A stretch of 64,000 nucleotides of DNA from Flectonema sp. DT1601 (GCA_964019425.1 OZ025806.1:558001-622000), one strand, 5' to 3'. Shown: positions 23,045-56,913, numbered from the stretch's first letter. A program made the numbers and translations. Notes: generated by a model from the letters alone, not told the origin.

Positions 23045-23075
<31 letters not shown>

Positions 23076-25492: not shown

Positions 25493-25524
<32 letters not shown>

Positions 25525-26006
25525 TTTTTCATGTTTGATTATTTCCTCTTCATTTTTTTTTTTCTTTTCTTTTCTTTCTTTTTATTTTTTTTTTTTTCTC
25601 TGCCTCTCTCTTAATTCTGTTCGTTTCTTTGAAACGAAAATTCATTTGAATATTATTCCTTGGTCAGCAACCATCATTGTCGCCCTTTGGGCCTGTTAAA
25701 AAAAATAAAAATAAAAAGAAAGTTTACATTGGGAATAGGGCAGGAGCCAAAAGCTCCCAGTCCGTTACTTCCCACTTTATCGAAACTCTCGCTTAGAAAT
25801 TTTTTATTTTTTTTATTTTCAGCTCAATTAGCTACAAAGCGTTACGGACGCTAAACTGATTGTTTTTTCTTTAAAAATAAAGGGAAAACCTACAGATCCA
25901 CCCCCAGGTTTGGAGAAACGTATACTACGGTCACGGCCTTGTGTAGCTTTTTTGACATTTTTTCCCAAATCGACAGCCCTCTATTCTGGGCGAGAAAATT
26001 TTTCAA

Positions 26007-31380: not shown

Positions 31381-31595
31381 GAATTTCGATAAAGTGGGAA
31401 GTAACGGACTGGGAGCTTTTGGCTCCTGCCCTATTCCCGATGTAAACTTTCTTTTTATTTTTATTTTTTTTAACAGGCCCAAAGGGCGACAATGATGGTT
31501 GCTGACCAAGGAATAATATTCAAATGAATTTTCGTTTCAAAGAAACGAACAGAATTAAGAGAGAGGCAGAGAAAAAAAAAAAAAAAAAATATATA

Positions 31596-33474: not shown

Positions 33475-36400
33475 GGAGAATTCTCCGTTGCCTACATAAA
33501 AAAAAGTTTTTTCTCCGTTGCCTGTCACCTTAACTTTTTTTTCTCCGTTGCCTGCACCCAAAAAGTTTTTTCGCTGTTGTGAACAACTCTTTTTTTTTTT
33601 TCTCTGTTGGGTACCAGCACTTTTTTTTTTTCTCTAAAAAAAAATTTTTTTTCTGGAAAAAAAAAAAAAAAAAAAAAAAAAGAAAAAAGAAATAAGAAAA
33701 AAAATCAGAGGTAGAATCTTCATATCTTCTCACATTCTTGACAGTGTTTCCTTGTTAGACGAAAAGTTTTATAAAGCAAGAATAGAAAACACTATAAATG
33801 AATCAGATGATGACCTTGCATCGAAAAATATTAAAGCTCATCAGATGATGAACTTGAATCACACTTCTTTCTCTTTCCGGATATCCGGTTTCTCCTAATC
33901 GATGTATCGACAGTCTTCTTGGGGGCCGACTTCTTCGCTGATTTCTTGGGGGCCGACTTCTTGGGGGCCGATTTCTTAGGGGCTGACTTCTTCGGGGCCG
34001 ACTTCTCGTGTAAGGGGTTTTTACACGTAGTCTTATTGTGGCCCACCTTACCACAACGACTACACAAGTTCTTTCCCTCCCCTTTGGAAGGAATCCTCTT
34101 CGTGGGGGCACCCTTCGGCTTCTTCGTTGTTGGCGGTAACAGTTCAGTCTTCGCCGACTGAAACTGATACAGCCCAACTGGCCGTACTGGGTCGTCATAC
34201 GCCTTTCGTAAGGCTCCCAAACGAAAGCAGGTTGGAACGTACTGCATCTCGTTGAAACCAAGAAACCTGTTTATTTAGTCCAATAAATTCGCCACAAGTA
34301 GCGTTGACCACGACAACAAAAAGACAAAAAGAAGAAGTACCTGATAGCCGCACAGGTATGAACGCATGGCAAGGCAGTCTGCTCTGGGAGCAAACAGGTG
34401 CAAGCCATTTCTTTACCCACCAGCTTGACCAACTCCTGCCTCTGTCCATGTACAACGTTCGCTGTTTGTTGTTATTATCCCTGCAGATGATTCTACAAGC
34501 CCCGAGAAAGATACCATACCTTCAAACACTTCGCCTTCGTGCATCACTGGTTCAACAGTGAACACTGCTGCTTCAACGGCAGCCGTCTCCACGATCTCTC
34601 GCACCCACCCCAAAACCATCTCGTCATCACCCTCTGCATCGTGCGCACTACGCCGTCGCTCGTAGTGCCACTTCTGCACAATGCTGACAATGCTGTTAAG
34701 CATCCCCAACACATTCTTGTCCCTGGCTGAAGAGATAACATTGTTAAACCCTTCAGCCAGGTTGTTCGTACTTTGATTGTACGTCCTAGAGCGGATTGCA
34801 CCGCGAGCCCAAGTCTCAGGCTCCTTTTCATCCAGGTATTCGTGGAGTACTTCAAGCTCGTTCTCCTCCGCAGACTCACCAAGAGCATCAAACATGGGTA
34901 GGAACCTGTATGAAGGTGCCGTACACAGATGTTTGAACCTACCAAACATCTCCTTGCTGAACTTGGCCTTGATGTTTCGACCCATGTGTTGTGTGCATTT
35001 GAGGGCAATCACATCGTTGTAATCCCCACGAAGCACCGACAGTAGGCCCTTGTCCTGATCGGCCATAAGGCCAAACCCTTCGCCCAAAAACTCCGGAACC
35101 TTCACCGCCGACTCCAGCTTCCCAAGGAAGTACTTCCACCCTTCGGCGTCTTCATTGCCTATCAAGGCGAAACCCACAGGGAATTGACTTCCCAGTGGGT
35201 CCATTGCAACAAATGTAAGCAATGTCCCCAAGTAATGTGCTCGTAAGAAGCACCCATCAACAACCCCAAATCCCCCCGGACATGCACCTACACCCTCCAG
35301 CGATGCCCCCAAAGCAAGGAAAAAGGACTTAAACCTTCCACCCTCTTCTTTTATGTCCCACTGGGTACCGGGGTTTTGTTCCGCCAGTGAGGTGAACCAG
35401 GCCTGTAACCAGGCAAATCCCTCATGGGGGTCACCATTGATCTCTTTATCGGCCTCTCCGAGGGCCCGGTATACAGTATCCTTCCCTACTGTTATGCCGC
35501 AAGACTTTAAGTCTTGTACAAGGTGGGACTTTTTATATTTTGTACCCAACTCCTTGTATTTTGCCAGGGAAAGGTAGGCTATTGTGGTCTTGAGCCCGTA
35601 CACCCTCCCCTCCCCAGGGTTGCAAGCGTCCGTATGCCGCAGCTGTGACACCGTCACAGTTCTCTCTTCACAACTCCCTGTAGCGCACACCCTCCACTCA
35701 CATGAGTCGGATGTGCAATGGAACGATATCCGGTTCTCACGCTTTTGTCTGCTAAACCTCCTTCCAGTGGAGCAGCAGGCGAGGGTGACGCTTGCCAGGA
35801 GTGCACTCTCGCTAGGGAAGACACGTCCCAGGGTTGGTGTCGGAACATTGAACACCGGCACGTTTATGGTCGGGACAGGTGTAACAGTATCCTCAGATGC
35901 GATCACAGGTGCAGTCTGCGGGGAGTCCATGTTTCCAGGCATTTGGTAGTAGGTAGGTAGGTAGGTAGGTGTTGAGTAGTTATTATCTGGAAACGTAGAG
36001 TAAAAAAACAAACAAACTATCAAGGGGACCTAGGTCCAGAACAGCAAGAAAAAAATGAGAATCCCTAAAACCACTACCAAAATTTATTTTCAGCCACAAA
36101 GTTTCCATGAACACCCTCTCACCTTAAGCGCACACGGATGTTGAGATAACGTTTGTACGATGTTCATCTGGCTTGACGAGATTAGCAAAGACAAGTACTC
36201 ACGGAAAGGTTGGGTTGTTCGTCAGGTCTTGATAGTGTTCTCAGCCTCTGGGAGTTTTACTACAAGTGCATGCAAAGAACGGTATGTGTGCAGGGCTGGG
36301 TCACCTTACAGAGAACTGTTGTCCTCTTACACGTCATTCCAACCGAATTTCAAGGCCAAGACACCTGCGAGTTACAGACAGCCTGGTCGCAAGCGACACT

Positions 36401-36728: not shown

Positions 36729-36981
36729 AAAAGGGAAAAAAGGTCAAGTGACACACAACAGAGAAAAATAAATATAGGTGGCACACAACAGCGAAAAATA
36801 AATATAGGTGGCACACAACAGCGAAAAATAAATATAGGTGGCACACAACAGCGAAAAAAAAGTTTAGGTGGCACACAACAGCGAAAAAAAAAAAGAAAAA
36901 AAAACACAACGGAGAAAAATTCTTTTAGGTGGACTACAACGGAGAAAAATAAAGTTTTGGGGTAGCAACGGAGAATTTTCC
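33475..36981 (-). mobile_element. Autonomous-looking Mutator/MuDR transposon
   Basis: TIR GGAGAATTCTCCGTTGC / GCAACGGAGAATTTTCC. 9-bp TSD TTTTATTTA at 33466-33474 and 36982-36990. 30-bp subterminal repeats at ~36750-36885. Confidence 0.93.
33831..35942 (-). CDS. MULE transposase, ~659 aa, 3 exons (35942-34520, 34461-34341, 34266-33831)
   Basis: DDE motifs VDGCFL, ADQDKGL, CTQH and NLAEGFN. After splicing introns 34519-34462 and 34340-34267 the SWIM finger CTC..LPCVH and the knuckle CSRCGKVGHNKTTC fall in frame. Confidence 0.9.
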
Positions 36982-38566
36982 TTTTATTTATTTTTTAAAG
37001 AAAAAAAAACGGAAAATAGAAATTAGTCAACAAAGTCGAACGATAAAAAAAAACAATGATAACATTGTTTATTCTTTTTTTTTATTTTTTTTTTTTAATA
37101 TTTTTTTTTATTTTGAAAAAAAAACAATCAGTTTAGCGTCTTGACCAGGACGGAAAATAGAAAGTAATCGACATAGTCGATCGATAAAAAAAACAATGAT
37201 AACATTGTTTATTCTTTTTTTTTTTTTTTTTTTTTTTTTAAATTCTTTTTATTTATTTTTTAAAGAAAAAAAAAACGGAAAATAGAAATTAGTCAACAAA
37301 GTCGAACGATAAAAAAAAAAAAAAAAAAAAAACAATGATAACATTGTTTATTCTTTTTTTTTATTTTTTTTTTTTAATATTTTTTTTTATTTTGAAAAAA
37401 AAACAATCAGTTTAGCGTCTTGACCAGGACGGAAAATAGAAAGTAATCGACATAGTCGATCGATAAAAAAAACAATGATAACATTGTTTATTCTTTTTTT
37501 TTTTTTTTTTTTTTTTTTAAATTCTTTTTATTTATTTTTTAAAGAAAAAAAAAACGGAAAATAGAAATTAGTCAACAAAGTCGAACGATAAAAAAAAAAA
37601 AAAAAAAAAAACAATGATAACATTGTTTATTCTTTTTTTTTATTTTTTTTTTTTAATATTTTTTTTTTATTTTGAAAAAAAAAAAACAATCAGTTTAGCG
37701 TCTTGACCAGGACGGAAAATAGAAAGTAATCGACATAGTCGATCGATAAAAAAAAACAATGATAACATTGTTTATTCTTTTTTTTTTGTATTTTTTTTAT
37801 ATTCTTTTTTATTAATTTTGAAAAAAAAAACAATCAGTTTAGCGTCTTGACCAGGACGGAAAATAGAAAGTGATCGACATAGTCGATCGATAAAAAAACA
37901 ATGATAACATTGTTTATTCTTTTTTTTATTTTAAATTCTTTTTATTTATTTTTTAAAGAAAAAAAAAAAAACGGAAAATAGAAATTAGTCGACAAAGTCG
38001 AACGATAAAAAAAACAATGATAACATTGTTTATTCTTTTTTTTGTATTTTTTTATATTCTTTTTTATTAATTTTGAAAAAAAAAAAACAATCAGTTTAGC
38101 GTCTTGACCAGGACGGAAAATAGAAAGTGATCGACATAGTCGATCGATAAAAAAAACAATGATAACATTGTTTATTCTTTTTTTTTATTTTAAATTCTTT
38201 TTATTTATTCTTTAAAGAAAAGAAACGGAAAATAGAAATTAGTCGACAAAGTCGAACGATAAAAAAAAACAATGATAACATTGTTTTTCCTTTTTTTTTT
38301 TTTTTTTTATATTCTTTTTTATTAATTTTGAAAAAAAAAAACAATCAGTTTAGCGTCTTGACCAGGACGGAAAATAGAAAGTGATCGACATAGTCGATCG
38401 ATAAAAAAACAATGATAACATTGTTTATTCTTTTTTTTTATTTTAAATTCTTTTTATTTATTCTTTAAAGAAAAGAAACGGAAAATAGAAATTAGTCGAC
38501 AAAGTCGAACGATAAAGAAAAAACAATGATAACATTGTTTATTCTTTTTTTTTTTTTTTTTTTATA

Positions 38567-38775
38567 TAAGACATCTAAACTGCAGCCCAGCTTATGCCCA
38601 ATGCACTAACAGGTCATTCCCTCACACTCAGATCAAAAAATCAAAGTTCAGAGTGCATCTTAGCATGAATGAGAGAATTTCTCATCGCTTTTTTTGAACA
38701 AAAGGGATAGAAGAGGGGATAGAAAACGAACATAACAATAAAATTCTAAGTGAGAAACACTTAGCAGAAACACTT
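38567..38775 (-). repeat. Family C internal fragment
   Basis: Matches ~54053-54261. Confidence 0.85.
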
Positions 38776-38784
38776 CCAACGATT

Positions 38785-38821
38785 CCAACGATTCTAAAGC
38801 TACAGTTTCTGTACTTTATTG
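38785..38821 (+). other. Spliced-leader (mini-exon) sequence, diplonemid type, fused to a 5' UTR
   Basis: CCAACGATTCTAAAGCTACAGTTTCTGTACTTTATTG matches the euglenozoan SL core ACAGTTTCTGTACT.TATTG. It is followed by CAAA rather than the GT of an SL-RNA gene. Confidence 0.9.
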
Positions 38822-40113
38822 CAAATTTTGCTCTTCTTTCTGTTTATATTAAAACAAAAGAATGTCTACACCACCAATTGTGGAAATTCCGCATGTAGAA
38901 TCTGAGATGGATTTAGATTCAATTCTGTTTGAGGATTTGAGGACGGTGAGAGCACAATCACCACGTGCCACCATCGGGGAAGCAGGGACGTTTTGGGATC
39001 CCCAATCCAAAATGTCCGAAGAAATGATGAAGAACAATTCGTTGGCCTTGATTGGAAGAGAAGCAGTATATTGTATGAGGAAGGAAGGGGAATCAAGTTG
39101 GAATTGGTATTGTGGCTTATTGTCAATGGTGGGTAATATGGGGAGGGTAACCTTGTCAAATTCGACAAGTCTTTTAAGGGGTGTGTATCGACACACGGGG
39201 CCGGACGAAACGTTCGACTTTCCACATGCGGGCTTTGAATATGCCCATGTGATAAGCAAGGATGTGTATTGGGATGAGTGGTCAAAAAGGTTAGTTCTAG
39301 AAAATGAACAAAAGATGTTAGGCATGTGCCAAAAGGTAACTAATTTGGAATCGCAGGTGGCGTCATTGTTATCGCCACAGATGCATGGTGCGCAACCCCA
39401 GCCACAGGTGCATGGTGCGCAACCTCAGCCACAGATGCATGGTGCGCAACCCCAGCCACAGATGCATGGTGCGCAACCCCAGCCACAAATACAACAAGAG
39501 AGTAGTATGATGCAACAAATGATGGCACTATTATCGCAAAATCAACAATTATGTCAGATGCAGATACAACAAACAAACGAATTGTTAAAAAACAAGGGCG
39601 GCGTAAAATGCCAATTGTCACCGGAAAATGTGGATTGCATCGAATTTGAGCTGGCGTCAGAAGCAACGAATGTGTTGCAGTGGCGCAATATACTGATACA
39701 AGGAGGGGCGGAAAGATTACTCGATAAGTTGGAGAATAAATATTGGTTACCACATAGTGGCAAAGTAGCAACCCGTGAACTGAGAGAGTTAAGGGGAGCA
39801 TTTGAAGTAGTGCGAGACAACATCAAAGCCATGAGCGTATCAACTATAGACTGGGTCACTTCAAAGCCCCTTGTCAGGAGCATGAACAAGTCGCTAGAGA
39901 ACTTGATCATGAAGTGGCAGCTGAATTTCGATAAAGTGGGAAGTAACGGACTGGGAGCTTTTGGCTCCTGCCCTATTCCCGATGTAAACTTTCTTTTTAT
40001 TTTTATTTTTTTTAACAGGCCCAAAGGGCGACAATGATGGTTGCTGACCAAGGAATAATATTCAAATGAATTTTCGTTTCAAAGAAACGAACAGAATTAA
40101 GAGAGAGGCAGAG

Positions 40114-40144
<31 letters not shown>

Positions 40145-40235
40145 GAGAAAAAAAAATGAAGAGGAAATAATCAAACATGAAAAAAAAAAAAAAAAAAAAA
40201 TATATATATAAATAAAAAACGTTGTATGAAAAAGG

Positions 40236-40285
<50 letters not shown>

Positions 40286-40503
40286 CCAGAAAAGGAAAGA
40301 GAAAATGAAAAGGTATAATATTATTGTGGGGATATGAGGGATAGCAGGGAGATGCTCTTTTTTTTTTTTTTTTTTTTTTTTTTCTTATTTATTATTTAAA
40401 AAAAGGAAACAATCAGTTTAGCGTCTCGATCAGGACGGAAAATAGAAATTAATCGACATAGTTGATCGATAGAAAAAAAAACAATGATAACATTGTTTAT
40501 TCA

Positions 40504-40535
<32 letters not shown>

Positions 40536-40797
40536 ATTTTAAAGAAAAAACAATCAGTTTAGCGTCTTGACCAGGACGGAAAATAATAAGTAATCGACAT
40601 AGTCGATCGATAAAAAAAAAACAATGATAACATTGTTTATTCCTTTTTTTTTTTTTTTTTTATTCTTTTTATTTATTTTTAAAGAAAAAACAATCAGTTT
40701 AGCGTCCTGACCAGGACGGAAAATAGAAAGTAATCGACATAGTCGATCGATAAAAGAAACAATGATAACATTGTTTATTCTTTTTTTTTTTTTTTAT

Positions 40798-41558
40798 CAT
40801 AGATGGAAGTGCCCTACAATTTGGAGGGCGTGTAGGGCGCTTTTAATATAAATATTATTTTGGAGGGCGCTTTTTTTTACCTTTTTTATTACTATAAGAC
40901 AGCTAAATTGACGTCGACTTACACTGACGCACAAGTATTTTGACGCAGAAGCCAAAAATTTTTTTGACATGCTTGGCAGTCTTTCGAAAAAGAGAAAAAA
41001 GGGTGTCACGGGGTTCGAACCCGAGACCTCCAGGTCATGGTTCGGAGGTCAACAATGGCAAAAACAATGGGCCACTCCTTGAGAGCTTCCGGAGCCTAGT
41101 GCAATCCCTGAAGCTGAAACTCATTTCAGTGGACGATGCATCCCAGATCTACAAGGAGCTGATTAGCCCGCAGAATGCACCGAGTCGAATATAGAGGGAT
41201 TCGAGGAGGGAGAGAGTGCGTTCTTGCTAGCCTGTTAATAGGTCGGTCTTCACGGTACCTTGTGAGAAAAAAAAAGAAGTTTACTGGTGGCAAGTAAACT
41301 GATATCCCAGAGACGCATTTGATCGGGCGAACCGGAGAAAAGTCAAATAAGATGCGATTCGACCCTCGCTGAGGGCAGGGGTGTGTCAAAATGAGCTCGG
41401 CATTATATTAAATTTAATTAAAAAAGCGCCCTACGCGCCCTCCAGCGCCCTATTTTGGCCCTATTTTGGCCCTACAATGGCACTATTTTGGCCCTACAAA
41501 TTTTTGTGGCTGATTTTCACCAGGCGCCCTCCAAATTTGGAGGGCACTTCCATCTATG
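40798..41558. mobile_element. 761-bp non-autonomous TIR element, 6-bp TSD, superfamily uncertain
   Basis: TIR CATAGATGGAAGTGCCCT.CAA.TTTGGAGGGCG. TTTTAT is duplicated relative to empty array monomers. A tRNA-like A/B box lies on the minus strand at ~41002-41078. Confidence 0.85.
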
Positions 41559-42095
41559 TTTTATTTTAATTCTTTTTATTTATTTTTAAAAAGAAAAAAA
41601 TGGGAAATAGAAATTAGTCAACAAAGTCGAACGATAAAAAAAAACAATGATAACATTGTTTATTCTTTTTTTTTTTATTTTTTTTATATTCTTTTTTATT
41701 AATTTTGAAAAAAAAAACAATCAGTTTAGCGTCTTGACCAGGACGGAAAATAGAAAGTGATCGACATAGTCGATCGATAAAAAAAGCAATGATAACATTG
41801 TTTATTCTTTTTTTTTTTTTTTTTTTTTAAATTCTTTTTATTTATTTTTTAAAGAAAAAAAAACGGAAAATAGAAATTAGTCAACAAAGTCGAACGATAA
41901 AAAAAAACAATGATAACATTGTTTATTCTTTTTTTTTATTTTTTTTTTTTAATATTTTTTTTTTATTTTGAAAAAAAAAAACAATCAGTTTAGCGTCTTG
42001 ACCAGGACGGAAAATAGAAAGTAATCGACATAGTCGATCGATAAAAAAACAATGATAACATTGTTTATTCTTTTTTTTGTATTTTTTTATATTCT

Positions 42096-42926
42096 GGATA
42101 GGAGATTTGGGAGAGGAATAGGGGCAGTGAACTTTTGGTTCAGGCCCTTCCCATCGAACAGGACGAAGACTTCTAAAACCTGAGATGAACCAATTGAGTT
42201 GAAACAAACAAATAACAGAGACGCAACACATACCGGAACATCATCGCAAGCAATGCTTCGGACCTCCGTCGACCTTCGTTCTTCCGGCGGCAAAGGGAAA
42301 CAAGAAAGAACGGGCAATGAGACAAACCTGTTAGTTGGTGTTGTGTTGTTGTTAAAAACAAAAACATAAACGCCAGGAAGTTCGACAACGAAGACATCGA
42401 CATCGATCGCTGCTCTGCAGATGTCCGGCGGGTGTTTGTCTACACTGTGTTTATTGTTTGTTTTTTTCCCAAGGTTCAACCTTGGGAAGAGAAGTAAAAA
42501 ATTCCGTCAATGTTGGCCTTCCTGTTCGAAGGTGCGCACCAATGACGATAAATAGAGTGGGGGGAGAAAACCTTTGATCCAACTGGATCCCTTCACGAGC
42601 TGACATTGCCATGTGAAGTTAAATATTCTGGCGATGCCAGCTCAGGCGACTTAGCCTGCTTTTTTCTTTAAATAAAAAAAATAAAAAGATACCAACAGGT
42701 GGGGTGATGGGTTGCGCCACTGCAATCCAGTCACAAAAAGAAACAAAGGTAATCTCAAGGGTTCTCGACCCTTGGCTCTCCCTGCGCAAGCATCGCATGG
42801 AGGGTGACGCTAAGCACCCGGGGGGTACGAAACAAACTTTCCCCCTGCTGTCCTGTTTGAAATAAAAAAAAAAACAAAGGGATAGAAGTAAACAGAATAC
42901 GTTACACCTCAACAGGTGACGCTAAA
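42096..42926 (-). repeat. Family D element with the conserved terminal stem-loop
   Basis: Stem-loop at 42122-42148. A second copy is split at 47818-47941 and 58534-59160. Confidence 0.85.
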
Positions 42927-43625
42927 TTTTTATTAATTTTGAAAAAAAAACAATCAGTTTAGCGTCTTGACCAGGACGGAAAATAGAAAGTGATCGACAT
43001 AGTCGATCGGTAAAAAAACAATGATAACATTGTTTATTCTTTTTTTTTTTTTTTTTTTTTTAATATTTTTTTTTATTTTGAAAAAAAAAAAACAATCAGT
43101 TTAGCGTCTTGACCAGGACGGAAAATAGAAAGTAATCGACATAGTCGATCGATAAAAAAAAACAATGATAACATTGTTTATTCTTTTTTTTTATTTTAAA
43201 TTCTTTTTATTTATTTTTTAAAGAAAAGAAACAGAAAATAGAAATTAGTCGACAAAGTCGAACGATAAAAAAAAAACAATGATAACATTGTTTATTCTTT
43301 TTTTTTTGTATTTTTTTTAATATTCTTTTTTATTAATTTTGAAAAAAAAAACAATCAGTTTAGCGTCTTGACCAGGACGGAAAATAGAAAGTGATCGACA
43401 TAGTCGATCGATAAAAAAACAATGATAACATACCACTAAGAGAATAAGCTCAGATGATATCGAGCGCTTAGTGAAGTCTGGAAAGACGTTTGATAAAGCA
43501 GTGAGGCTAGCCGAGTTAGATGCAGAGAAAAAGCTGAAGAACGAGTGGAATGGGAAAGGGGATAAGGGGAGAGGAAGTTGGAATCCGCAGAATAAATTTA
43601 AGAGCAGTTATTCAAAGGGATTTTC

Positions 43626-44539
43626 GGGAAACGTTGGGGGGGCTGGCAAAGGTCAAAAGTGAACCGAGGCCAGCCCCGAGTAAAGCGGTGTTTAGTCCGC
43701 GTTGGTCCAGCAAGTTTTCAGAATTTCCATGGTATCAAAGGTTCAGGAAAGGTTTCCCTAGGAAAGTCGGTGTCAGAAGGGTCGACCCTTATTCCGGAAC
43801 GGATTTGGGAGATAAGGGAGAATCTCATGCAGTCGGAAGGAGCAGAGGTTTCCACATTGATTGGAAGCCTTATGAAAAACCAGATCGAGGATCAAGTAAG
43901 GAAGATTCAGCGGGTACGGAACAGAGAGTACACGTCGGATTTGACCGACTCGTTAATGGTGATGGAACAAATCGCCGGGAAGATCTGGGCGCAAAGCACA
44001 ATGAGAAGTCGACAGTGCTTGTGGGACCGTCTGCTAATTTGGGTGGAGAGAAACGATGTCCCTGTAAATCAGGATACAGTTGCGTTGTTTGTGACAGCGA
44101 CAAAGGTATCGAAGCAAGGAATGTTGGCCTACGCAAAGGCGTTCTCAGGCATGCTGAAGAGGATGGGATTGGAGAACGAGACATTGAAGCAGCTAGCGGC
44201 GGCGCTAAGGGCAGACGGCGCTGCGGTGCCGTTGGAGCAGGCGGAACCGATAAATCGTTCTGTTTTGATTGCGTGGGCAATGAAGCAAGATGTTCAGCTG
44301 AAGACGGGCTTACTGATCGCATGGAAATCGGCGGCGAGATGGGGGGAGGTATGGAAGCTGGGGAGAAGAAATTTCGTTTTCATTTCTGTGGAGGAAATAA
44401 TTGTGGATTGGTGGGATGTTCCGAAGGGACGGAGGGAAGATCCTTTCAAACCATCGAGATGGGTAGTGATAAAAGGCTTTTTGACTCCAGAGATAGCCCA
44501 GGGTTTGCTGGTTCTAGGGGACTTTGTAAGTCTGACAAA
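43626..44539 (+). pseudogene. Tyrosine recombinase of TATE/VIPER/DIRS type, 3'-truncated by family A
   Basis: SAM-like N-domain (RQCLWDRLLIW..VALFV..YAKAF), then LRADGA.VP..QAEPI and the first catalytic Arg box LLIAWKSAARWGEV. The H-x-x-R and Tyr part is missing. Confidence 0.8.
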
Positions 44540-44730
44540 GAATTCGATAGAGTGGGAAGTAACGGACTGGGAGCTTTTGGCTCCTGCCCTATTCCCGATG
44601 TAAACTTTCTTTTTATTTTTTTTTTTTTAACAGGCCCAGAGGGCGACAATGACTGTTGCTGACCAAGGAATAATATTCAAATGAATTTTCGTTTCAAAGA
44701 AACGAACAGAATTAAGAGAGAGGCAGAGAA

Positions 44731-44763
<33 letters not shown>

Positions 44764-45085
44764 AAAAAAAAAAAAAATATGAAGAGGAAATAATCAAACA
44801 TGAAAAAAATAAAAAAAAAAATAAAATATAAATAAAAAACGTTGTATGAAAAAGGAAAAAAAAGAAGAAAAAAAAAAAAGACCAGAAAAGGAAAGAGAAA
44901 ATGAAAAGGTATAATATTATTTTGGGGATATGAGGATAGCAGGGAGATGCTCTTTTTTTTTTTTTTTTTTTATTTATTATTTAAAAAAAAGGAAACAATC
45001 AGTTTAGCGTCTCGATCGGGACGGAAAATAGAAATTAATCGACATAGTCGATCGATAGAAAAAAAAACAATGATAACATTGTTTA

Positions 45086-45120
<35 letters not shown>

Positions 45121-47817
45121 CTTTTAATTATTTTAAAGAAAAAACAATCAGTTTAGCGTCTTGACCAGGACGGAAAATAGAAAGTGATCGACATAGTCGA
45201 TCGATAAAAAAACAATGATAACATTGTTTATTCTTTTTTTTTTTTTTTTAAATTCTTATTATTTATTTTTTAAAGAAAAAAAAACGGAAAATAAAAATTA
45301 GTCGACAAAGTCGAACGATAAAAAAAAAACAATGATAACATTGTTTATTCTTTTTTTTTTTGTTTTTTTTTTATATTCTTTTTTATTAATTTTGAAAAAA
45401 AAAACAATCAGTTTAGCGTCTTGACCAGGACGGAAAATAGAAAGTAATCGACATAGTCGATCGATAAAAAAACAATGATAACATTGTTTAATCTTTTTTT
45501 TTTTTTTAAATTCTTTTTATTTATTTTTTAAAGAAAAAAAAACGGAAAATAGAAATTAGTCGACAAAGTCGAACGGTAAAAAAACAATGATAACATTGTT
45601 TATTCTTTTTTTTTATTTTTTTTATATTTTTTTTAATTAATTTTGAAAAAAAAAACAATCAGTTTAGCGTCTTGACCAGGACGGAAAATAGAAAGCGATC
45701 GACATAGTCGATCGATAAGAAAACAATGATAATATTGTTTATTCTTTTTTTTTTATTTTAAATTCTTTTTATTTATTTTTTAAAAAGAAAAAAAAACGGA
45801 AAATAGAAATTAGTCAACAAAGTCGAACGATAAAAAAAAAAACAATGATAACATTGTTTATTCTTTTTTTTTATTTTAAATTCTTTTTATTTATTTTTTA
45901 AAGAAAAAAAAAAAAAGGAAAATAGAAATTAGTCGACAAAGTCGAACGATGAAAAAAAACAATGATAACATTGTTTATTCTTTTTTTTATTTTTTTTTTT
46001 TATTCTTTTTTATTAATTTTGAAAAAAAAAAACAATCAGTTTAGCGTCTTGACCAGGACGGAAAATAGAAATTAGTCGACAAAGTCGAACGATAAAAAAA
46101 ACAATGATAACATTGTTTATTCTTTTTTTATTTTTTTTTTATATTCTTTTTTATTAATTTTGAAAAAAAAAAAACAATCAGTTTAGCGTCTTGACCAGGA
46201 CGGAAAATAGAAAGTAATCGACATAGTCGATCGATAAAAAAAACAATGATAACATTGTTTATTCTTTTTTTTATTTTTTTTTTTTATTCTTTTTTATTAA
46301 TTTTGAAAAAAAAAAACAATCAGTTTAGCGTCTTGACCAGGACGGAAAATAGAAATTAGTCGACAAAGTCGAACGATAAAAAAAACAATGATAACATTGT
46401 TTATTCTTTTTTTATTTTGTTTTTATATTCTTTTTTATTAATTTTGAAAAAAAAAAAACAATCAGTTTAGCGTCTTGACCAGGACGGAAAATAGAAAGCG
46501 ATCGACATAGTCGATCGATAAGAAAACAATGATAATATTGTTTATTCTTTTTTTTTTATTTTAAATTCTTTTTATTTATTTTTTAAAAAGAAAAAAAAAC
46601 GGAAAATAGAAATTAGTCAACAAAGTCGAACGATAAAAAAAAAAACAATGATAACATTGTTTATTCTTTTTTTTTATTTTAAATTCTTTTTATTTATTTT
46701 TTAAAGAAAAAAAAAAAAAGGAAAATAGAAATTAGTCGACAAAGTCGAACGATGAAAAAAAACAATGATAACATTGTTTATTCTTTTTTTTATTTTTTTT
46801 TTTTATTCTTTTTTATTAATTTTGAAAAAAAAAAACAATCAGTTTAGCGTCTTGACCAGGACGGAAAATAGAAAGTAATCGACATAGTCGATCGATAAGA
46901 AAACAATGATAACATTGTGTATTCTTTTTTTTTTATTTTAAATTCTTTTTATTTATTTTTTAAAGAAAAAAACTGAAAATAGAAATTAGTCGACAAAGTC
47001 GAACGATAAAAAAAACAATGATAACATTGTTTATTCTTTTTTTTTATTTTAAATTCTTTTTATTTATTTTTTAAAGAAAAGAAACGGAAAATAGAAATTA
47101 GTCCGATAAAAAAAAAAACAATGATAACATTGTTTATTCTTTTTTTTATTTTTTTTTTTTATATTCTTTTTTATTAATTTTGAAAAAAAAAAACAATCAG
47201 TTTAGCGTCTTGACCAGGACGGAAAATAGAAATTAGTCGACAAAGTCGAACGATAAAAAAAAACAATGATAACATTGTTTATTCTTTTTTTTTTAAATTC
47301 TTTTTATTTATTTTTTAAAGGAAAAAAAACGGAAAATAGAAATTAGTCGACAAAGTCGAACGATAAAAAAACAATGATAACATTGTTTATTCTTTTTTTT
47401 TTTTTTTTATTTCTTTTTATTTATAAAAAAAAACAATCAGTTTAGCGTCTTGACCAGGACGGAAAATAGAAAGTGATCGACATAGTCGATCGATAAAAAA
47501 ACAATGATAACATTGTTTATTCTTTTTTTTATTTTAAATTCTTTTTATTTATTTTTTAAAGAAAAAAAAACGGAAAATAGAAATTAGTCGACAAAGTCGA
47601 ACGATGAAAAAAAACAATGGTAACATTGTTTATTCTTTTTTTTATTTTTTTTTTTTTTATTCTTTTTTATTAATTTTGAAAAAAAAAACAATCAGTTTAG
47701 CGTCTTGACCAGGACGGAAAATAGAAAGTAATCGACATAGTCGATCGATAAAAAAACAATGATAACATTGTTTATCCTTTTTTTTTTTTTTTACTTCTTT
47801 TTATTTATAAAAAAAAA
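44540..47817 (-). mobile_element. Family A element, long array (resumes at ~59161-59816)
   Basis: Head at 44540. Distinctive monomer variants (AAACTGAAAATAG; TTTCTTTTTATTTATAAAAAA) recur after 59160. Confidence 0.82.
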
Positions 47818-48341
47818 GGACAGCAGGGGGAAAGTTTGTTTCGTACCCCCCGGGTGCTTAGCGTCACCCTCCATGCGATGCTTGCGCAGGGAGAGCCAAG
47901 GGTCGAGAACCCTTGAGATTACCTTTGTTTCTTTTTGTGACTTTTTTTTTCGATAAAGTGAGAAGTAACGGACTGGGAGCTTTTGGCTCCTGCCCTATTC
48001 CCGATGTAAACTTTCTTTTTTTTTTTTTTTTTTTTTTTAACAGGCCCAAAGGGCGACAATGATGGTTGCTGACCAAGGAATAATATTCAAATGAATTTTC
48101 GTTTCAAAGAAACGAACAGAATTAAGAGAGAGGTAGAGAAAAAAAAAAAAAAAAAAAAAGAAAGAATAGAAAAAAAATATGAAGAGGAAATAATCAAACA
48201 TGAAAAAAAAAAAAAAAAAAATAAAATATAAATAAAAAACGTTGTATGAAAACGGAAAAAAAGAAAAAAAAAGACCAGAAAAGGAAAGAGAAAATGAAAA
48301 GGTATAATATTATTGTGGGGATATGAGGATAGCAGGGAGAT

Positions 48342-48372
<31 letters not shown>

Positions 48373-49045
48373 ATTTATTATTTAAAAAAAGGAAACAATC
48401 AGTTTAGCGTCTCGATCAGGACGGAAAATAGAAATTAATCGACATAGTCGATCGATAGAAAAAAAAACAATGATAACATTGTTTATTCTTTTTTTTTTTT
48501 TTTTTTTTTTAAATCCTTTTTATTATTTTTAAAGAAAAAACAATCAGTTTAGCGTCTTGACCAGGACGGAAAATAGAAAGTAATCGACATAGTCGATCGA
48601 TAAAAAAAAAACAATGATAACATTGTTTATTCCTTTTTTTTTTTTTTTTTTTTATTCTTTTTATTTATTTTTAAAGAAAAAACAATCAGTTTAGCGTCCT
48701 GACCAGGACGGAAAATTGAAAGTGATCGACATAGTCGATCGATAAAAAAACAATGATAACATTGTTTATTCCTTTTTTTTTTTTTTTTTTTATTCTTTTT
48801 ATTTATTTTTAAAGAAAAAACAATCAGTTTAGCGTCCTGACCAGGACGGAAAATTGAAAGTGATCGACATAGTCGATCGATAAAAAAACAATGATAACAT
48901 TGTTTATTCCTTTTTTTTTTTTTTTTTTTATTCTTTTTATTTATTTTTAAAGAAAAAACAATCAGTTTAGCGTCCTGACCAGGACGGAAAATTGAAAGTG
49001 ATCGACATAGTCGATCGATAAAAAAACAATGATAACATTGTTTAT

Positions 49046-49083
<38 letters not shown>

Positions 49084-50412
49084 TTTTAATTATTTTTTAA
49101 AGAAAAAACAATCAGTTTAGCGTCTTGACCAGGACGGAAAGTAGAAAGTGATCGACATAGTCGATCGATAAAAAACAATGATAACATTGTTTATTCTTTT
49201 TTTTTTTTTTTTTTTTTAATCCTTTTTATTATTTTAAAGAAAAAACAATCAGTTTAGCGTCTTGACCAGGACGGAAAATAGAAAGTGATCGACATAGTCG
49301 ATCGATAAAAAAACAATGATAACATTGTTTATTCTTTTTTTTTTCTTTTTTTTTTTTTTTTTTAACCTTTTAATTATTTTTTAAAGAAAAAACAATCAGT
49401 TTAGCGTCTTGACCAGGACGGAAAGTAGAAAGTGATCGACATAGTCGATCGATAAAAAACAATGATAACATTGTTTATTCTTTTTTTTTTTTTTTTTTTT
49501 TTTTTAATCCTTTTTATTATTTTAAAGAAAAAACAATCAGTTTAGCGTCTTGACCAGGACGGAAAGTAGAAAGTGATCGACATAGTCGATCGATAAAAAA
49601 CAATGATAACATTGTTTATTCTTTTTTTTTTTTTTTTTTTTTTTTTAATCCTTTTTATTATTTTAAAGAAAAAACAATCAGATTAGCGTCTTGACCAGGA
49701 CGGAAAATAGAAAGTGATCGACATAGTCGATCGATAAAAAAACAATGATAACATTGTTTATTCTTTTTTTTTTTTTTTTTTTAAATTCTTTTTATTTATT
49801 TTTAAAGAAAAAAAAAAAACGGAAAATAAAAATTAGTCGACAAAGTCGAACGATAAAAAAAAAACAATGATAACATTGTTTATTCTTTTTTTTTTTGTTT
49901 TTTTTTATATTCTTTTTTATTAATTTTGAAAAAAAACAATCAGTTTAGCGTCTTGACCAGGACGGAAAATAGAAAGAAATTGACATAGTCGATCGATAAA
50001 AAAAAACAATGATAACATTGTTTACTCTTTTTTTTTTTTTTTTTTAAATTCTTTTTATTTATTTTTTAAAAAGAAAAAAAAACGGAAAATAGAAATTAGT
50101 CAACAAAGTCGAACGATAAAAAAAAAAACAATGATAACATTGTTTATTCTTTTTTTTTTTATTTTTTTTTATATTTTGAAAAAAAAAAAAAAAAAAACAA
50201 TCAGTTTAGCGTCTTGACCAGGACGGAAAATAGAAAGTGATCGACATAGTCGATCGATAAAAAAAAACAATGATAACATTGTTTATTCTTTTTTTTTTTT
50301 TGGGAAAACCTACAGATCCACCCCCAGGTTTGGAGAAACGTACACTACGGTCACGGCCTTGTGTAGCATTTTCGACCCCAGAAGATTAAATAAAAAAAAA
50401 CTTTTTTTGCAT

Positions 50413-50726: not shown

Positions 50727-52529
50727 TTATCTGATGGAATCGGGATTGCTTGAAGATGATGATGTCGACATGTCACGCTTCTTCCTCTTCCCTACAATGC
50801 GGGAAGCTCCTTCCGAAGGACCGTAGCGACAACTACGGCTGTTGTGCCCACGCCTTCTACACTTGCCACATTTATTCGGTATTGTCTCACCTGCACTGCG
50901 GATGCGAGTCTTCTTCGGCCTGCCAACACCCTTCCTCACTTCAGGTGGTAGTGTTCCATCAGATGTGGTGTCATGCGCGGGTTCAGGCTTCAGTGTGAGT
51001 TGATAGAGGCTGTCATAGGAAGTTGTCCACAGGTATGCTGGGCACACACGGCTGTCTGTCAATGTGTTTATATCCAGGTGCGCTGCAACTCTCAGAATAT
51101 GCATGCAAGGCAGGTTGTAGCGCCTGTAACTTGGACAGCTACATGTAAAGGGATGCCCTTCCTTCACAACAGAACCTGTTTGGGGTTGGTTTGGCTTGCC
51201 AACTTCAAACTCACCGTCTTCGAGGCTTGTGACTTGATACGTGAAAGCCACAGTTTCCTCACGTATCTTTTGCTCGATCGGTGGGATCGGTCTGTTGGTT
51301 GAGGTTTGTTCGGAGAATGCACCTCGCCTCTCCGCGAGCTTGTCGGTCAACCACCTTCGAGTCTGCTGGATCAGAGTTAAAACTGACCCCTCGCGTGCCG
51401 GCTTCAGCAAAGAGTTTATGCTTTCCACGGCGTTGCTGGTGTAGGTATCACACCTCGCAACATCATCTGGCCAGTAAGCATCTGCCCATCGCTTCATATC
51501 GGTGTTCTTGAGGTACCGATGGGCCTTCTTCCCGTGTTGCTGCTTAACATCCTTCAGCACCTCCACCACCTTCGTGCTGTCCGCCTTTGCCAGTTCCCAC
51601 ACTGTTTTTGTGGCTTCTTGCTTCGTCAGGCTAGTCTCCACAGCAACATTCTTAACCAGGTGGTTAATACAAATAGCGTGGTGGCGAATGGTGTCGTCCA
51701 ACGACGTGTCGGACTCCAGTCCCTTCTGCCTGTCGGAGAACAGTGTAAATCGGGATAGTCGATTTCCATACACAGCCAGTATTTTTCTGTTGTGGAGTGT
51801 CCACGACTGCAAGTCCTCCGACGCGGATATTGTGAACCCCAATGGCAGGAGCTTCCTGTTGGCGTCCAGACCCAGGGTCACCAGTAACACACCGCGAAAT
51901 GACCCATAAAGGCCACATGCGTCAGAGAAGATTACCGGTAGCAGGTAATCAATTGCCACAGGTGGCAGAAACGCCCAGAAGCAGCTGGCGAAAACCAAAT
52001 CCCTGCGTCGTTCAATGGAGAATGTCATCTCCGGATTTTTTTCTTTTAGGGCTTCGAAGTATGATTGGAGCTGCCCATACTCCGACCCTCGCTTTCCATA
52101 CACCTTCTCCTTCGCTATCGCTAACCCCTTTTCCACGGTGCCTTTCTTCACCGGAATATCCCTGAAGCTCTTCAGGTCAACTGCAGCGGCTTTAGGCCCG
52201 TAGTCTGGAAAACTACGCACCTTTTCCTCCAGCACCGATGCCACCCACTCTGCTACTCCATCCCCTTCTCTGTTGCACAAGCCAGGGGAACATGTGTGAG
52301 CTTTCACCTCCCTCACCTGGAGCTCACCTTCCTTGACTACCGCCTTCACAACATACAAGCAGTCTTCTTCATTCTTGCATACCAGGGTGGTTCGGTTGCG
52401 ATCACTCCTTTTCACCCTGAAGGTGTGGCCGTGCGTTGTTGACCACTCAAATACCCTGGCCTTCAGCGCTATGACGGTGGCAAACACTTCACCTTCCGAC
52501 ACCTGCAGTTGTGCAACGTTGTTGTTCAT
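50727..52529 (-). CDS. MULE transposase, 600 aa, intronless
   Basis: MuDR N-domain (GEVF..C...DCLY..HTC), DDE motifs FSDACGL, SDRQKGL, CINH and NAVESIN, SWIM CSC..LPCMH, knuckle CGKCRRRGHNSRSC. Confidence 0.95.
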   Translation of the reverse strand: MNNNVAQLQVSEGEVFATVIALKARVFEWSTTHGHTFRVKRSDRNRTTLVCKNEEDCLYVVKAVVKEGELQVREVKAHTCSPGLCNREGDGVAEWVASVLEEKVRSFPDYGPKAAAVDLKSFRDIPVKKGTVEKGLAIAKEKVYGKRGSEYGQLQSYFEALKEKNPEMTFSIERRRDLVFASCFWAFLPPVAIDYLLPVIFSDACGLYGSFRGVLLVTLGLDANRKLLPLGFTISASEDLQSWTLHNRKILAVYGNRLSRFTLFSDRQKGLESDTSLDDTIRHHAICINHLVKNVAVETSLTKQEATKTVWELAKADSTKVVEVLKDVKQQHGKKAHRYLKNTDMKRWADAYWPDDVARCDTYTSNAVESINSLLKPAREGSVLTLIQQTRRWLTDKLAERRGAFSEQTSTNRPIPPIEQKIREETVAFTYQVTSLEDGEFEVGKPNQPQTGSVVKEGHPFTCSCPSYRRYNLPCMHILRVAAHLDINTLTDSRVCPAYLWTTSYDSLYQLTLKPEPAHDTTSDGTLPPEVRKGVGRPKKTRIRSAGETIPNKCGKCRRRGHNSRSCRYGPSEGASRIVGKRKKRDMSTSSSSSNPDSIR

Positions 52530-52631
52530 TTGAAACTTAAGGATTAATAACTAACGGGGGGTTAAAAAAAAAAATGACGCAACCGGGACTCGAACCGACG
52601 CAGCTGGAAAAAAATTGAGCGGGGAAAAAAG

Positions 52632-53114: not shown

Positions 53115-54900
53115 GTTGAATTTCCAGGTGAGATTTGGACTGTTAGCTTTTGGCTAAGGCCCTCCCTGAAGAGCAAGAACAAAAAAACTACTCACACCTG
53201 AAGAAAACATACACAAAGAACACACTGTAAGCTGTGTGTGTATTTTGTGTTTGTCACAACAGGAGAGAAAAGAAAGAATGTCAAGGTTGGTCACCTTGCC
53301 TATCAACGCACAACATTGGTGGTCTCTACTAGACCCTGAGTGATCCCACTGGATCTCTCATCGTTCATAGTACCCTGTGTGAAGTTATAAAATCAAAGGT
53401 AAACTATGAACTACAAATGACTTAGCCTGTTATTATAATGCCACAGGCAGGCCCTGCATTCAGCAACTATCCAGCAGTGCTTGGATGTCCTGATCTTCTT
53501 CTAAAAAAAAGAAAGAAAAACAAAACTGTAGCTGGGATCACTCAGGATCAACAGACTACCAATGCTACCTGTTGTACTTGCTCACTATGGGGGGTGATGC
53601 CAAACACCCAGAAGTACTAAACTGCTTTCCTTCTTGCTGCCCAGGAGTTTCTGACCAGAACTAATAGAAAATAAAAAGTAGATGGGAAACAATAAAAAGT
53701 AAAATGGATATAACTGAAGTTAAACAAGACAAATGAAGTAACAGACCAGAACAGAAAGAGAATTGTAATAGAAGATTACAAATAAAAAAAATGCAAGATC
53801 AACACATGATCAGGATACACCAGCAGCTAACAAACAACATAAAATTGAAGATCAGTTGCCAGAGTATTTCAACCATGGTAGAATACTCGCCTCTGGCAGG
53901 GATTATCCCAGACTTGTCCTTTAATCTAGTTGGACACCATGGCTTACAACCCTTCCAGAGGGAAGCACCATTATGACTTCTATTTTTTTTCTTCAAGAAA
54001 ATCATAAGGTGGGAACAAAGAAAAATGCTAAGAGGAACCCCCTATTAACACCTAAGACATCTAAACTGCAGCCCAGCCTATGCCCAATGCACTAACAGGT
54101 CATTCCCTCACACTCAGATCAAAAAATCAAAGTTCAGAGTGCATCTTAGCGTGAATGAGAGAATTTCCTCCCGCTTATTTTGAACAAAAGGGATAGGAGA
54201 AGGGATAGAAAACGAACATAACAATAAAATTCTAAGTGAGAAACACTTAGCAGAAACACTTAGCAGTTTTTAGGAGCTGAAAAGCAAAAAAAAAATCTAA
54301 GTGAGAAACACTTAGTAGAAACAATTTGTAGCTAATTAAGCTGAAAATAAAAAAATAAAAAATTCCTAAGTGAGAAATACTTAGCAACTTTTAGAACAAA
54401 TATTTCAGTAAATAACCTGTAATGATTAAACCATTACAAGTTTGATGCCAAAACTGACAAGGACTGAGTTGAATTTCCAGGTGAGATTTGGACTGTTAGC
54501 TTTTGGCTAAGGCCCTCCCTGAAGAGCAAGAACAAAAAAACTACTCACACCTGAAGAAAACATACACAAAGAACACACTGTAAGCTGTGTGTGTATTTTG
54601 TGTTTGTCACAACAGGAGAGAAAAGAAAGAATGTCAAGGTTGGTCACCTTGCCTATCAACGCACAACATTGGTGGTCTCTACTAGACCCTGAGTGATCCC
54701 ACTGGATCTCTCATCGTTCATAGTACCCTGTGTGAAGTTATAAAATCAAAGGTAAACTATGAACTACAAATGACTTAGCCTGTTATTATAATGCCACAGG
54801 CAGGCCCTGCATTCAGCAACTATCCAGCAGTGCTTGGATGTCCTGATCTTCTTCTAAAAAAAAGAAAGAAAAACAAAACTGTAGCTGGGATCACTCAGGA
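53115..54900 (-). mobile_element. Family C element: 1353-bp unit plus a ~430-bp partial tandem copy
   Basis: GTTGAATTTCCAGGTGAGATTTGGACTGTTAGC starts at 53115 and again at 54468. Confidence 0.88.
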
Positions 54901-56913
54901 AAATAGAAAGTAATCGACATAGTCGATCGATAAAAAAAAAAACAATGATAACATTGTTTATTCTTTTTTTTTTTTTTTTAAATTCTTTTTATTTATTTTT
55001 TAAGAAAAAAAAAACGGAAAATAGAAATTAGTCGACATGGTCGAACGATAAAAAAACAATGATAACATTGTTTATTCTTTTTTTTATTTTTTTTTTTTAT
55101 ATTCTTTTTTATTAATTTTGAAAAAAAAAAAAAAAACAATCAGTTTAGCGTCTTGACCAGGACGGAAAATAGAAAGTAATCGACATAGTCGATCGATAAA
55201 AATACAATGATAACATTGTTTAATCTTTTATAATTTTTTATTTTTTTTTTGTTTTAAAAAAAAAAAAAAAAAAACAAGCGGAATTGATCATAATGGGTGG
55301 TAGGGGTTGTTATAACTTCGTTTGAAAATTCTTCTTTTTTGATTTCTTTTTTTTTTTTTTTCTTTTTACAGGAGTTAAGATCACTTTCAGGAGACAACAC
55401 ATACACATTAACAAGAGCAGCAAGCAGAGTTGACACTATCAATTCAAATTTGAAATACCGGGAATTAATTTACAAGGAGGTATCTCAAGTGACTTGGTAT
55501 CTCTAGCGTGTCGGTATCTCTGGAGTGCTGGTATCTCGTATGTGCGTTGGTATCTCATGAGTGATGGTATCTCTTGTGCATTAGAGAAACGAAAAAGAAT
55601 GTCATGACCATGACGGAAGAATTGAGGAATTGAGTTAACATGTTCAATTTAACTTATTTAAACTTTTTTTTTTTTTAACAGACCGTAACTATTTGAAAAT
55701 AAAATGTAGATGGGAAACAGTGAAAAGTAAAATGGATGATAAAATTAAATGAGAAATATGACATAACAGACCAGATAGAGAGTATTAAAGGGAAATTGAA
55801 AAGGAAAAGAGAAACTAGGTTAACACTTATTTAAAATTAAGACCGGTTAGTCAGTTTAAGGTCTTGACTAGGACCAACAAAAAAGAAAGAAAAAAAATTA
55901 ACGATCAAGCTGAGCTGATCCTGTTTTTATTACAAATAGGGGAGCGGGAGGGATGGAAGGAATAGAGGAAAAAAAAAGAAAAGGTTGATCAATTGGATCT
56001 GATCGTCGAGAAGAAGAAATTATTTTAAAGGTTGATCGGTATAGCCGATCGTTGAGAAAAATAAACAGATATAAATAGGAATTTCGATAAGTGGGAAGTA
56101 ACGGACTGGGAGCTTTTGGCTCCTGCCCTATTCCCGACGTAAACTTTCTTTTTATTTTTTTTTTTTTTTTTTAACAGGCCCAAAGGGCAATCAGTTTAAA
56201 TTAAAAAAAGAAAAAAAGATTAACGATCAAGCTGAGCTGATCTTGTTTTTATTTAAAATTAGGGGAGCGGGAGGGATGGAAGGAATAAAGGAAAAAAAAA
56301 AAAAAAAGGTCGATCAATTGGATCTGATCGTCGAGAAGAAGAAAACAATTATTTATAAAAAAAAAGAAAAAAATGGTCGGTATAGCCGATCGTTGAGAAA
56401 AGAACAGATATAAATACAATCGGTTTTGGTGATCGACGAGTGGAGCGATCACTTGACAAGAAGGAAAAAGAAAGGACCGATTAATTGGGGCTTTGATTGT
56501 ATTCCCAAGGCATGTTTTTTTTTTTTTTTTTATTATTCAATTACATTATTATTATTTTTTTTTTTTTTTAAATTAATAATCACATTTTGTTCAAAAATAT
56601 TTCATATTAGAGTAAAAGAAAAAGAAAAAAAGAAATAAGAGAAAAAAAAAAAAAAAACCATTGCTGGCCCCCTCACCACTCATAGAGGATGAGGAGGCCA
56701 GTAAGGCGTCACTCAAATCTATGCCAAGCCTTGGGAACTTGGATTGGGGTTTAGACCATTTATAATTAACAATTAACAATTAACCTGATTAACGTTATGA
56801 TCTGACGGACATAAACATATCGATAAAATAATACAAACAAAAACGAACAATAAATAATAAATAAGCTAAAAAACTAAATAAACAAAGTGATGTGAAAGTA
56901 AGGAAAAAGAGAA

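Follow-up and report, generated by a model that had tools for sequence, protein, structure and literature searches.

The window analysed here, a 64,000-nt stretch of Flectonema sp. DT1601 DNA (GCA_964019425.1 OZ025806.1:558001-622000, one strand, positions counted from its first letter), contains at 38776-44539 what is probably a young, truncated copy of a VIPER/TATE-like tyrosine recombinase (YR) retrotransposon, the 5' end of which was likely reverse-transcribed from a mature element mRNA that carried the trans-spliced spliced leader (SL). The SL exon sequence of the organism is present here in genomic DNA. Around 38776 the + strand reads ...GAAACACTT CCAACGATT CCAACGATTCTAAAGCTACAGTTTCTGTACTTTATTG CAAATTTTGC...(40 nt)...ATG, i.e. 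satellite DNA, an internal piece of an uncharacterised repeat (family C), a 9-nt stutter, SL nt 3-39 and the element follow one another.

Read directly, 38785-38821 (+) is the 37-mer CCAACGATTCTAAAGCTACAGTTTCTGTACTTTATTG, a DNA copy of SL exon nt 3-39 that lacks the first two nucleotides (AA). A single match to the 37-mer is present in the window, also when up to three mismatches are allowed, and 0/100 shuffles matched it. Its 3' 19-mer, the conserved SL core of kinetoplastids and diplonemids (PMC3795323), is likewise found a single time in the window, with 6/100 shuffles matching at up to three mismatches. Public runs were searched with 38560-40000 (10 runs listed, best share 0.27 of the sampled words, none recorded as RNA), and the contigs of four runs (X1-X4) were compared with 38500-40100; statements on these four runs refer to the 26 of 28 pieces listed. 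SL RNA gene contigs in X1 (72 nt, depth 27.9), X3 (68 nt, 14.3) and X4 (284 nt, 8.05) match 38785-38821 at 37/37 positions with 0 differences. Their upstream sequence is ...TTTTTAAGGTTAA and their downstream sequence GTACAGTCTCAA(CATCC), so that they consist of AA, the 37-mer and an intron beginning with GT; in X2 the same downstream (intron) loose end follows the 3' end of the SL. The depth of the SL contigs is 8-28, compared to 2-4 for contigs of the first open reading frame (ORF1) of the element. Judged by their sequence, these short, deep contigs represent the SL RNA gene, the true SL is 39 nt long, and the window holds nt 3-39 of it. The window also fits the published 'Diplonema sp' SL consensus, given as AACCAACGATTYWAAAGCTACAGTTTCTGTACTTTATTG in the supplement of PMC3795323, at every position (37/37, as nt 3-39). 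An SL RNA gene within the window itself was considered and rejected, as no GT follows the exon, the 23-mer upstream of the gene is absent at up to three mismatches and Rfam finds 0 families in the window; a tRNA scan of the window also gave 0.

The exon in the window stops exactly at the donor site, with mRNA sequence directly behind it: the junction reads ...TATTG/CAAATT, whereas the SL gene reads ...TATTG/GTACAG, and the window has no SL intron. The 40-nt 5' untranslated region (UTR) of ORF1 (38822-38861, +) starts with CAAATTTTGC (CAAATT) right after the 37-mer and leads to the ORF1 ATG at 38862. Two contigs of sister copies, X2 rec7 and X3 rec16 (614 nt each, depth 2-3), match window positions 38821-39031 with 6-7 differences. 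Where the window has the SL, these sister copies read ...TTACTTCCTTTCCTTAG/CAAATTTT..., i.e. a pyrimidine tract and AG. Across the junction their sequence is ...CTTCCTTTCCTTAG/CAAATT, and upstream of the shared G it is (A/T)TTTAACTAATATGTTACTTCCTTTCCTTA, also given as ...TTACTTCCTTTCCTTA. The pyrimidine tract and AG end at the base that in the window is occupied by the final G of the SL, so that the UTR of the window copy is joined to the SL at the AG-acceptor position of its sisters. Parent-type copies have a predicted 3' splice acceptor at the very position where the SL of the window ends. An SL that ends precisely at the exon border and a UTR that starts precisely at the acceptor together are the product of trans-splicing, and the presence of this product in DNA requires reverse transcription. 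All contigs and loose ends that cross the SL 3' end in the four runs enter the intron and none enters the UTR; the SL-tagged form is therefore not detectably present in those runs. Although the type of the runs is not on record, we infer that they are DNA rather than mRNA.

On its 5' side the SL is preceded by the 9-nt stutter CCAACGATT (38776-38784, +), a duplicate of SL nt 3-11 that is identical to the first 9 bases of the 37-mer at 38785. The upstream partner of this chimeric junction is a 209-bp internal fragment of family C (38567-38775, +), which adjoins satellite DNA on its left at 38567 and is 95-96% identical to 54053-54261 (+) and 29168-28960 (-). The full family C repeat measures at least 1.07 kb (53253-54320 corresponds to 29970-28900 at 98.8%). 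Both other copies read ...CACTT/AGCAG..., compared to ...CACTT/CCAACGATT at the junction. The 30-mer upstream of the sister-copy acceptor is not found in the window, and family C is therefore not the normal 5' flank of the element within 30 nt. The original prediction, made from the window sequence, had described a 37-nt SL exon with a 9-nt stutter before it, fused without an SL-intron GT to a 40-nt UTR and the ORF1 ATG and abutting a family C fragment. All of this is borne out by direct reading and by the two other family C copies. It had further made its case dependent on the window's SL being the true SL of the organism, which the SL gene contigs and the published consensus show it to be (37/37 in each), and the comparison of 5' ends that it proposed gave the expected AG acceptor in sister copies at the position of the SL.

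ORF1 is in frame over its first 353 codons (38862-39920, +). Seven database homologs were found, the best being P0001 (412 aa, 94% identity), and in alignment A1 the window copy is collinear with the full-length proteins up to ...NLIMKWQ (39920). At this point the full-length proteins continue uninterrupted (...SLENLIMKWQ/YTTKRISSDDIERLV..., MKWQ/YTTKRISSDD), and the window copy is split by a nested insertion of 3.5 kb (39921 to ~43430). The second ORF1 fragment starts (H)TTKRISSDD at 43429/43432 and ends with a stop codon at 43660-43662. Its 76 C-terminal codons plus stop (43432-43662, +) resume at the codon after 39920 in A1, tblastn and translation; tblastn of P0001 aa 336-412 against the window gives 97.4% identity (75/77 residues). 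Two unrelated fragments at 38776-44539 are ruled out, because ORF1 picks up behind the insertion with the very next codon (A1), and the marked stretch is one element copy split by an insertion. The insertion contains a 'tail' of ~430 bp starting with CTGAATTTCGATAAAGTGGG, satellite units of 142/115 bp, a 761-bp element with terminal inverted repeats (TIRs) at 40798-41558 and a fragment of another repeat at 42106-42729, and its right end lies inside a satellite unit.

Downstream of ORF1 the YR ORF begins with an ATG at 43827 and stays in frame to ~44539 (43827-44539, +). These N-terminal ~238 codons cover the core-binding domain, the first catalytic Arg and the Lys region. The ORF is cut there by a second tail copy (44540-44975, +, 89% identical to 39927-40380), and the window copy lacks the H-x-x-R/K, H and Y parts. 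With P0008 (535 aa) the YR fragment shares 224/225 aligned residues, and tblastn of P0008 finds nothing past aa 225 anywhere in the window. Thus, the window copy has neither the catalytic half of the YR nor the reverse transcriptase (RT)/RNase H (RH) part nor a 3' end. A copy collinear from ORF1 to YR was later split by the 3.5-kb insertion and cut by the second tail. Both the nested insertion within 38776-44539 and the truncation on the 3' side go beyond the original prediction. The copy is considered young because ORF1 and YR keep their frame before and after the insertion and 224/225 (P0008) and 75/77 (P0001) residues are retained.

We then characterised the recombinase through its relatives. 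An exhaustive HMMER search with the 239-aa YR fragment returned 376 relatives at E ≤ 1e-3. A profile of 60 YR relatives (A2) matches Cre recombinase (E 1.1e-5) and aligns S-a-H-S-i-K-r-G-A of the family to the H-x-x-R box of Cre; the conserved A2 columns are R177, K206, H266, K269, H297 and Y310, corresponding to the YR signature R..K..H-x-x-R..H/W..Y with K in place of the second R of Cre. The AlphaFold model of the relative P0010 (predicted local distance difference test, pLDDT, 92.2) has Cre/Tre-DNA complexes as top folds (probability 1.00, template-modelling score 0.5-0.57, 34 matches at E ≤ 1e-3), followed by Xer and lambda integrases. The single-sequence structure of the window fragment has a pLDDT of 34, which is too low for use. 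Pfam gives nothing significant for the YR fragment and P0008, and Phage_integrase yields one weak match on 18 YR relatives; phmmer searches of the PDB with the YR fragment, P0008 and P0014 returned nothing relevant. Profile and model together indicate a Cre-like tyrosine recombinase fold for the element family, of which the window itself has the N-terminal half with the first R.

P0008 extends past the YR into a region that aligns to aa 860-937 of P0014, a 1190-aa polyprotein listed by NCBI as a Diplonema papillatum hypothetical protein (37% identity). The organism of the window is related to D. papillatum but distinct from it, and the nearest proteins are from ENA contigs. Among 55 relatives of P0014 aa 840-1190, precomputed Pfam matches comprise RT_RNaseH in 12/55 and RVT_1 in 1/55, while P0014 itself reached only E 0.04 in the RT/RNase H check. 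The family architecture would thus be gag-like, YR and RT/RH, as in the VIPER-like group (VIPER and TATE). ORF1 has no Pfam domain and no CCHC motif; it is in the expected position and comprises 412 aa when whole. TATE Gag-like proteins likewise are without a recognised domain (PMC6681497), and in D. papillatum TATE-like ORFs, MULE elements and many LINE-type RTs have been described (PMC10161547). From the earlier designation as a TATE-like gag/YR element the assignment to a YR retroelement family is upheld by the Cre profile and fold and by RT/RH in relatives, and ORF1 is gag-like by position only.

The first four nucleotides of the kinetoplastid SL are heavily modified. In the pathway we favour, cDNA synthesis would stop at SL nt 3, two nucleotides short of the cap, as would fit modified bases near the cap that block the enzyme. 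A single slip back of the cDNA end by microhomology between CCAA (nt 3-6) and CTAA (nt 12-15) may have followed: the cDNA 3' end ...TTGG would anneal again to CUAA (nt 12-15), in the same SL or in a different one, and nt 11-3 would be copied a second time, thereby yielding the 9-nt stutter. This is one form of the template jump suggested in the original prediction, a reading that we likewise infer from the sequence. The cDNA end would finally be joined to the 209-bp family C piece, with which it shares TT, by template switch or end-joining. To the RT/RH of the element family itself we assign an about even chance of having been the enzyme; it is favoured because the RNA of the family is its natural template. 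A trans-spliced mRNA offers no 5' repeat for the canonical YR route, which would explain the irregular patchwork junction. Integration of such a spliced mRNA copy would be non-canonical, and the copy may represent a dead end and not a normal product of replication. Split direct repeats of the VIPER/TATE-like form (A1 ... B1-A2-B2) are not seen in the window copy, in which the SL would have taken the place of a 5' repeat located upstream of the acceptor.

That the copy was reverse-transcribed from mature trans-spliced RNA, as originally proposed, is supported by the identity of the SL and by the AG acceptor in sister copies. Several points weigh against it. As the 3' end is missing, poly(A), a target-site duplication and terminal repeats are not visible, and the RT/RH seen in relatives is absent from the window copy. 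Only a single SL-tagged copy is seen. The two junctions of the window, family C/SL and SL/UTR, are bridged by none of the listed pieces of the four runs, the best run has only 27% of the sampled words, and the run types are not on record, so that the AG-type contigs are only presumed to be DNA.

Among the alternatives, the one that survives best differs in the enzyme, and we regard it as possible rather than probable. A LINE-type (non-long terminal repeat, non-LTR) RT would have acted in trans, by target-primed reverse transcription of the polyadenylated trans-spliced mRNA, and the copy would be a processed pseudogene of a retrotransposon, with stutter and family C piece arising as template switches at the 5' end. 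LINE RTs produce template-switch chimeras that resemble the chimeric 5' junction of the window. For the relative D. papillatum ~2500 retroelement gene models are reported, including LINE-1, SLACS, R2 and jockey (PMC10161547), and the SL-relic retrogenes of dinoflagellates have been put down to off-target RT activity of this kind (PMC12014239). However, neither poly(A) nor a target-site duplication is visible, the 3' end being absent, none of the 15 long ORFs scanned in the window matches an RT, non-LTR RTs included, and full-length copying of an mRNA of ~5 kb would be needed to reach the SL.

A second alternative places the SL-capped RNA in the regular life cycle: it would serve as replication template of the YR family, and SL-tagged copies would form a propagating lineage. 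The youth of the copy with its two ORFs in frame, the fact that YR elements copy their own RNA and the reported amplification of DIRS-1 via linear single-stranded cDNA (PMC7192593) speak for it. We nevertheless consider it unlikely, as there is one SL-tagged copy in 64 kb, the listed contigs of the four runs comprise two of AG type and none of SL type, and the irregular 5' junction with stutter and foreign fragment seems accidental. In addition, the spliced RNA would miss the 5' repeat described for VIPER/TATE-like elements (PMC6681497).

The junction could also have been created in the assembly by a chimeric read or by cDNA, and no independent contig among the listed pieces of the four runs confirms the window's own junction. 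An artefact nevertheless appears quite improbable. Within the contiguous window the junction has 38 kb on one side and 25 kb on the other, the repeats flanking it are found elsewhere in the window too, and two later nested insertions give the copy a history in DNA. Moreover, a 9-nt stutter with an internal repeat fragment and satellite attached to it would not occur in a cDNA contaminant.

SLACS, CZAR and CRE elements also bring an SL exon next to the 5' end of a retroelement in euglenozoans, but they insert within the exon, with the rest of the exon and the intron after the element; SLACS-type elements sit between nt 11 and 12. The anatomy of the window differs: SL nt 3-39, the exon's 3' part included, lie entirely upstream, the element is not embedded in SL gene sequence and the window has no other SL piece, so that an insertion of this type into an SL gene was rejected. 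That part of an SL RNA gene was captured at the DNA level and without an RNA intermediate, through ectopic recombination or a SLACS/CZAR/CRE-type element, is hardly credible, for although SL RNA genes are multi-copy (depth 8-28) and SLACS-type RTs are annotated in D. papillatum (PMC10161547), the exon alone is present and ends exactly at the donor site, the gene's upstream 23-mer is missing and the downstream partner starts exactly at the AG acceptor.

Scanning metagenomes for SL nt 15-39 with a base other than G directly after it returned at least 120 loci, in most of which the SL is at a contig end, as in transcript assemblies. Among the matches listed, the full 39-mer with the exact SL sequence of the window occurs in 4 loci, and tblastn detects no relatives of ORF1 or YR. 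In L043, L045, L076 and L084 a full 39-nt SL lies inside contigs of 3.8-5.8 kb, at locus position ~587 or 287, between AT-rich coding DNA upstream (GC 0.27-0.33) and an ORF of GC 0.41-0.64 that begins shortly after the SL. These four have in common the motif AAAAAATGA(A/T)TT.TGCT / AAAATTGA, which ends ~18-20 nt before SL nt 1 and which we take to resemble a giant-virus early promoter. Either the assembler formed chimeras via the common SL, or these are genes in which a DNA-encoded SL follows the gene's own promoter. In many transcript-like contigs, L098, L103 and L105 among them, a complete SL is directly followed by a relic that starts at SL nt 6, 7 or 9, and L103 has up to four SL matches in a row. 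The 14 letters before the SL match, among the matches listed, are ...TATTGACGATTCTA in 16 cases and ...TTATTGCGATTCTA in 4. Such tandem SLs could stem from template switching in vitro during library preparation or be real DNA-encoded relics.

Further repeats are found in the window. The tail that splits ORF1 and cuts the YR ORF is a unit of ~400-430 bp with 11 copies in the window, starting GAATT(T)CGATA(A/G)AGTGGGAAGTAACGG and ending ...ATTGTGGGGATATGAG. It has a GGAGC-TTTT-GGCTCC hairpin, A-rich runs and a sharp 5' boundary, and satellite often comes after it. Its copies are on the + strand at 39921-40350, 44540-44975, 62677-63015, 47949-48272, 22657-23082, 31385-31588 and 56083-56188 and on the - strand at 25784-25395, 60715-60395, 28898-28615 and 60126-60019. 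That the tail is the 3' end of the YR element was ruled out, as the 11 copies each follow unrelated sequence and one is a clean insertion in a family C copy; comparison of this copy (25400-25800, -) with the uninterrupted 54300-54470 reveals no evident target duplication. The tail is an independent mobile unit, which may be non-autonomous and perhaps a counterpart of the SIRE of VIPER.

Much of 23-64 kb consists of the satellite, in which units of 142 bp and ~115 bp alternate (core AACAATCAGTTTAGCGTCTTGACCAGGACGGAAAATAGAAAGTAATCGACATAGTCGATCGATAAAAAAACAATGATAACATTGTTTATTC and a T-run) and mobile-element fragments are embedded. Blocks include 36978-38567, 40356-40798, 41553-42095, 42923-43431, 44953-47808, 48344-50301 and 63088-64000; further blocks exist. 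The 761-bp TIR element at 40798-41558, which lies in satellite within the nested insertion, has 25-nt TIRs (CATAGATGGAAGTGCCCT...) and an inner inverted pair of 36 nt. MULE transposase ORFs are located at 34413-36029 (-) and 50727-52550 (-), the second also with SWIM and MuDR DNA-binding domains. A direct repeat of 430 bp, 100% identical between 53115-53544 and 54468-54897, surrounds 923 bp of family C between two satellite blocks. The arrangement corresponds to 1.3 units of a 1353-bp tandem repeat or, alternatively, to an element bounded by long terminal direct repeats.

The closest described analogue of the locus is the SL-relic retrogene of dinoflagellates, in which a DNA-encoded SL (DinoSL/DinoRL) likewise stands at the 5' end of a gene copy (PMC12014239, PMC5585692, PMC6050394) and is taken as the mark of reverse transcription and re-integration of a mature mRNA (PMC12014239). 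The phenomenon as such, a DNA relic of the SL that marks a retroposed mature mRNA, is thus already well described there. In contrast to the dinoflagellate cases, the window belongs to Euglenozoa with a Diplonema-type 39-nt SL, and the copied RNA is the mRNA of a retrotransposon itself and not of a host gene. The relic of the window misses only nt 1-2 and has a 9-nt stutter, whereas the DinoRL form loses the first 7 nt to re-splicing, and unlike dinoflagellate relics the locus gives no evidence of re-expression or of tandem relics. In chimeric retrocopies made by RT template switching, such as U6-L1 of mammals, unrelated RNA pieces are also joined head to tail at the 5' end with short microhomologies; in the window the joined piece comes from inside the uncharacterised family C repeat.

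With VIPER and TATE of kinetoplastids the family shares the order of gag-like ORF, YR and RT/RH and a euglenozoan host (PMC6681497), and in some relatives of the window element the parts form a single polyprotein (P0014). The window copy differs in that no split direct repeats are seen and the RT/RH part is absent, and its assignment is to the VIPER/TATE-like group as a whole. In the text of the VIPER/TATE survey PMC6681497 the term 'spliced leader' has 0 occurrences. No report of DNA-encoded SL retrocopies in Euglenozoa (diplonemids, kinetoplastids) was found in the literature searched, which excluded subscription journals and leaves absence unproven. For kinetoplastids, RT-mediated intron loss has been proposed (PMC11613528).

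It would go far, and we think it improbable, to propose that diplonemid VIPER/TATE-like YR elements can propagate from SL-trans-spliced RNA, with hard-wired SLs marking a replicating sub-lineage and, as DinoSL relics do, a pervasive flow of mature mRNA into euglenozoan genomes. A DNA-encoded SL physically records the reverse transcription and integration of a mature trans-spliced RNA. Research on retrogenes in dinoflagellates began with this tag, and in Euglenozoa the SL can be used as a genome-wide screen for retrocopies. The locus also maps the trans-splice acceptor of the first ORF of a YR retrotransposon without RNA data, and the missing nt 1-2 together with the 9-nt stutter may serve as a natural measure of the distance that a cellular RT covers on a capped SL.

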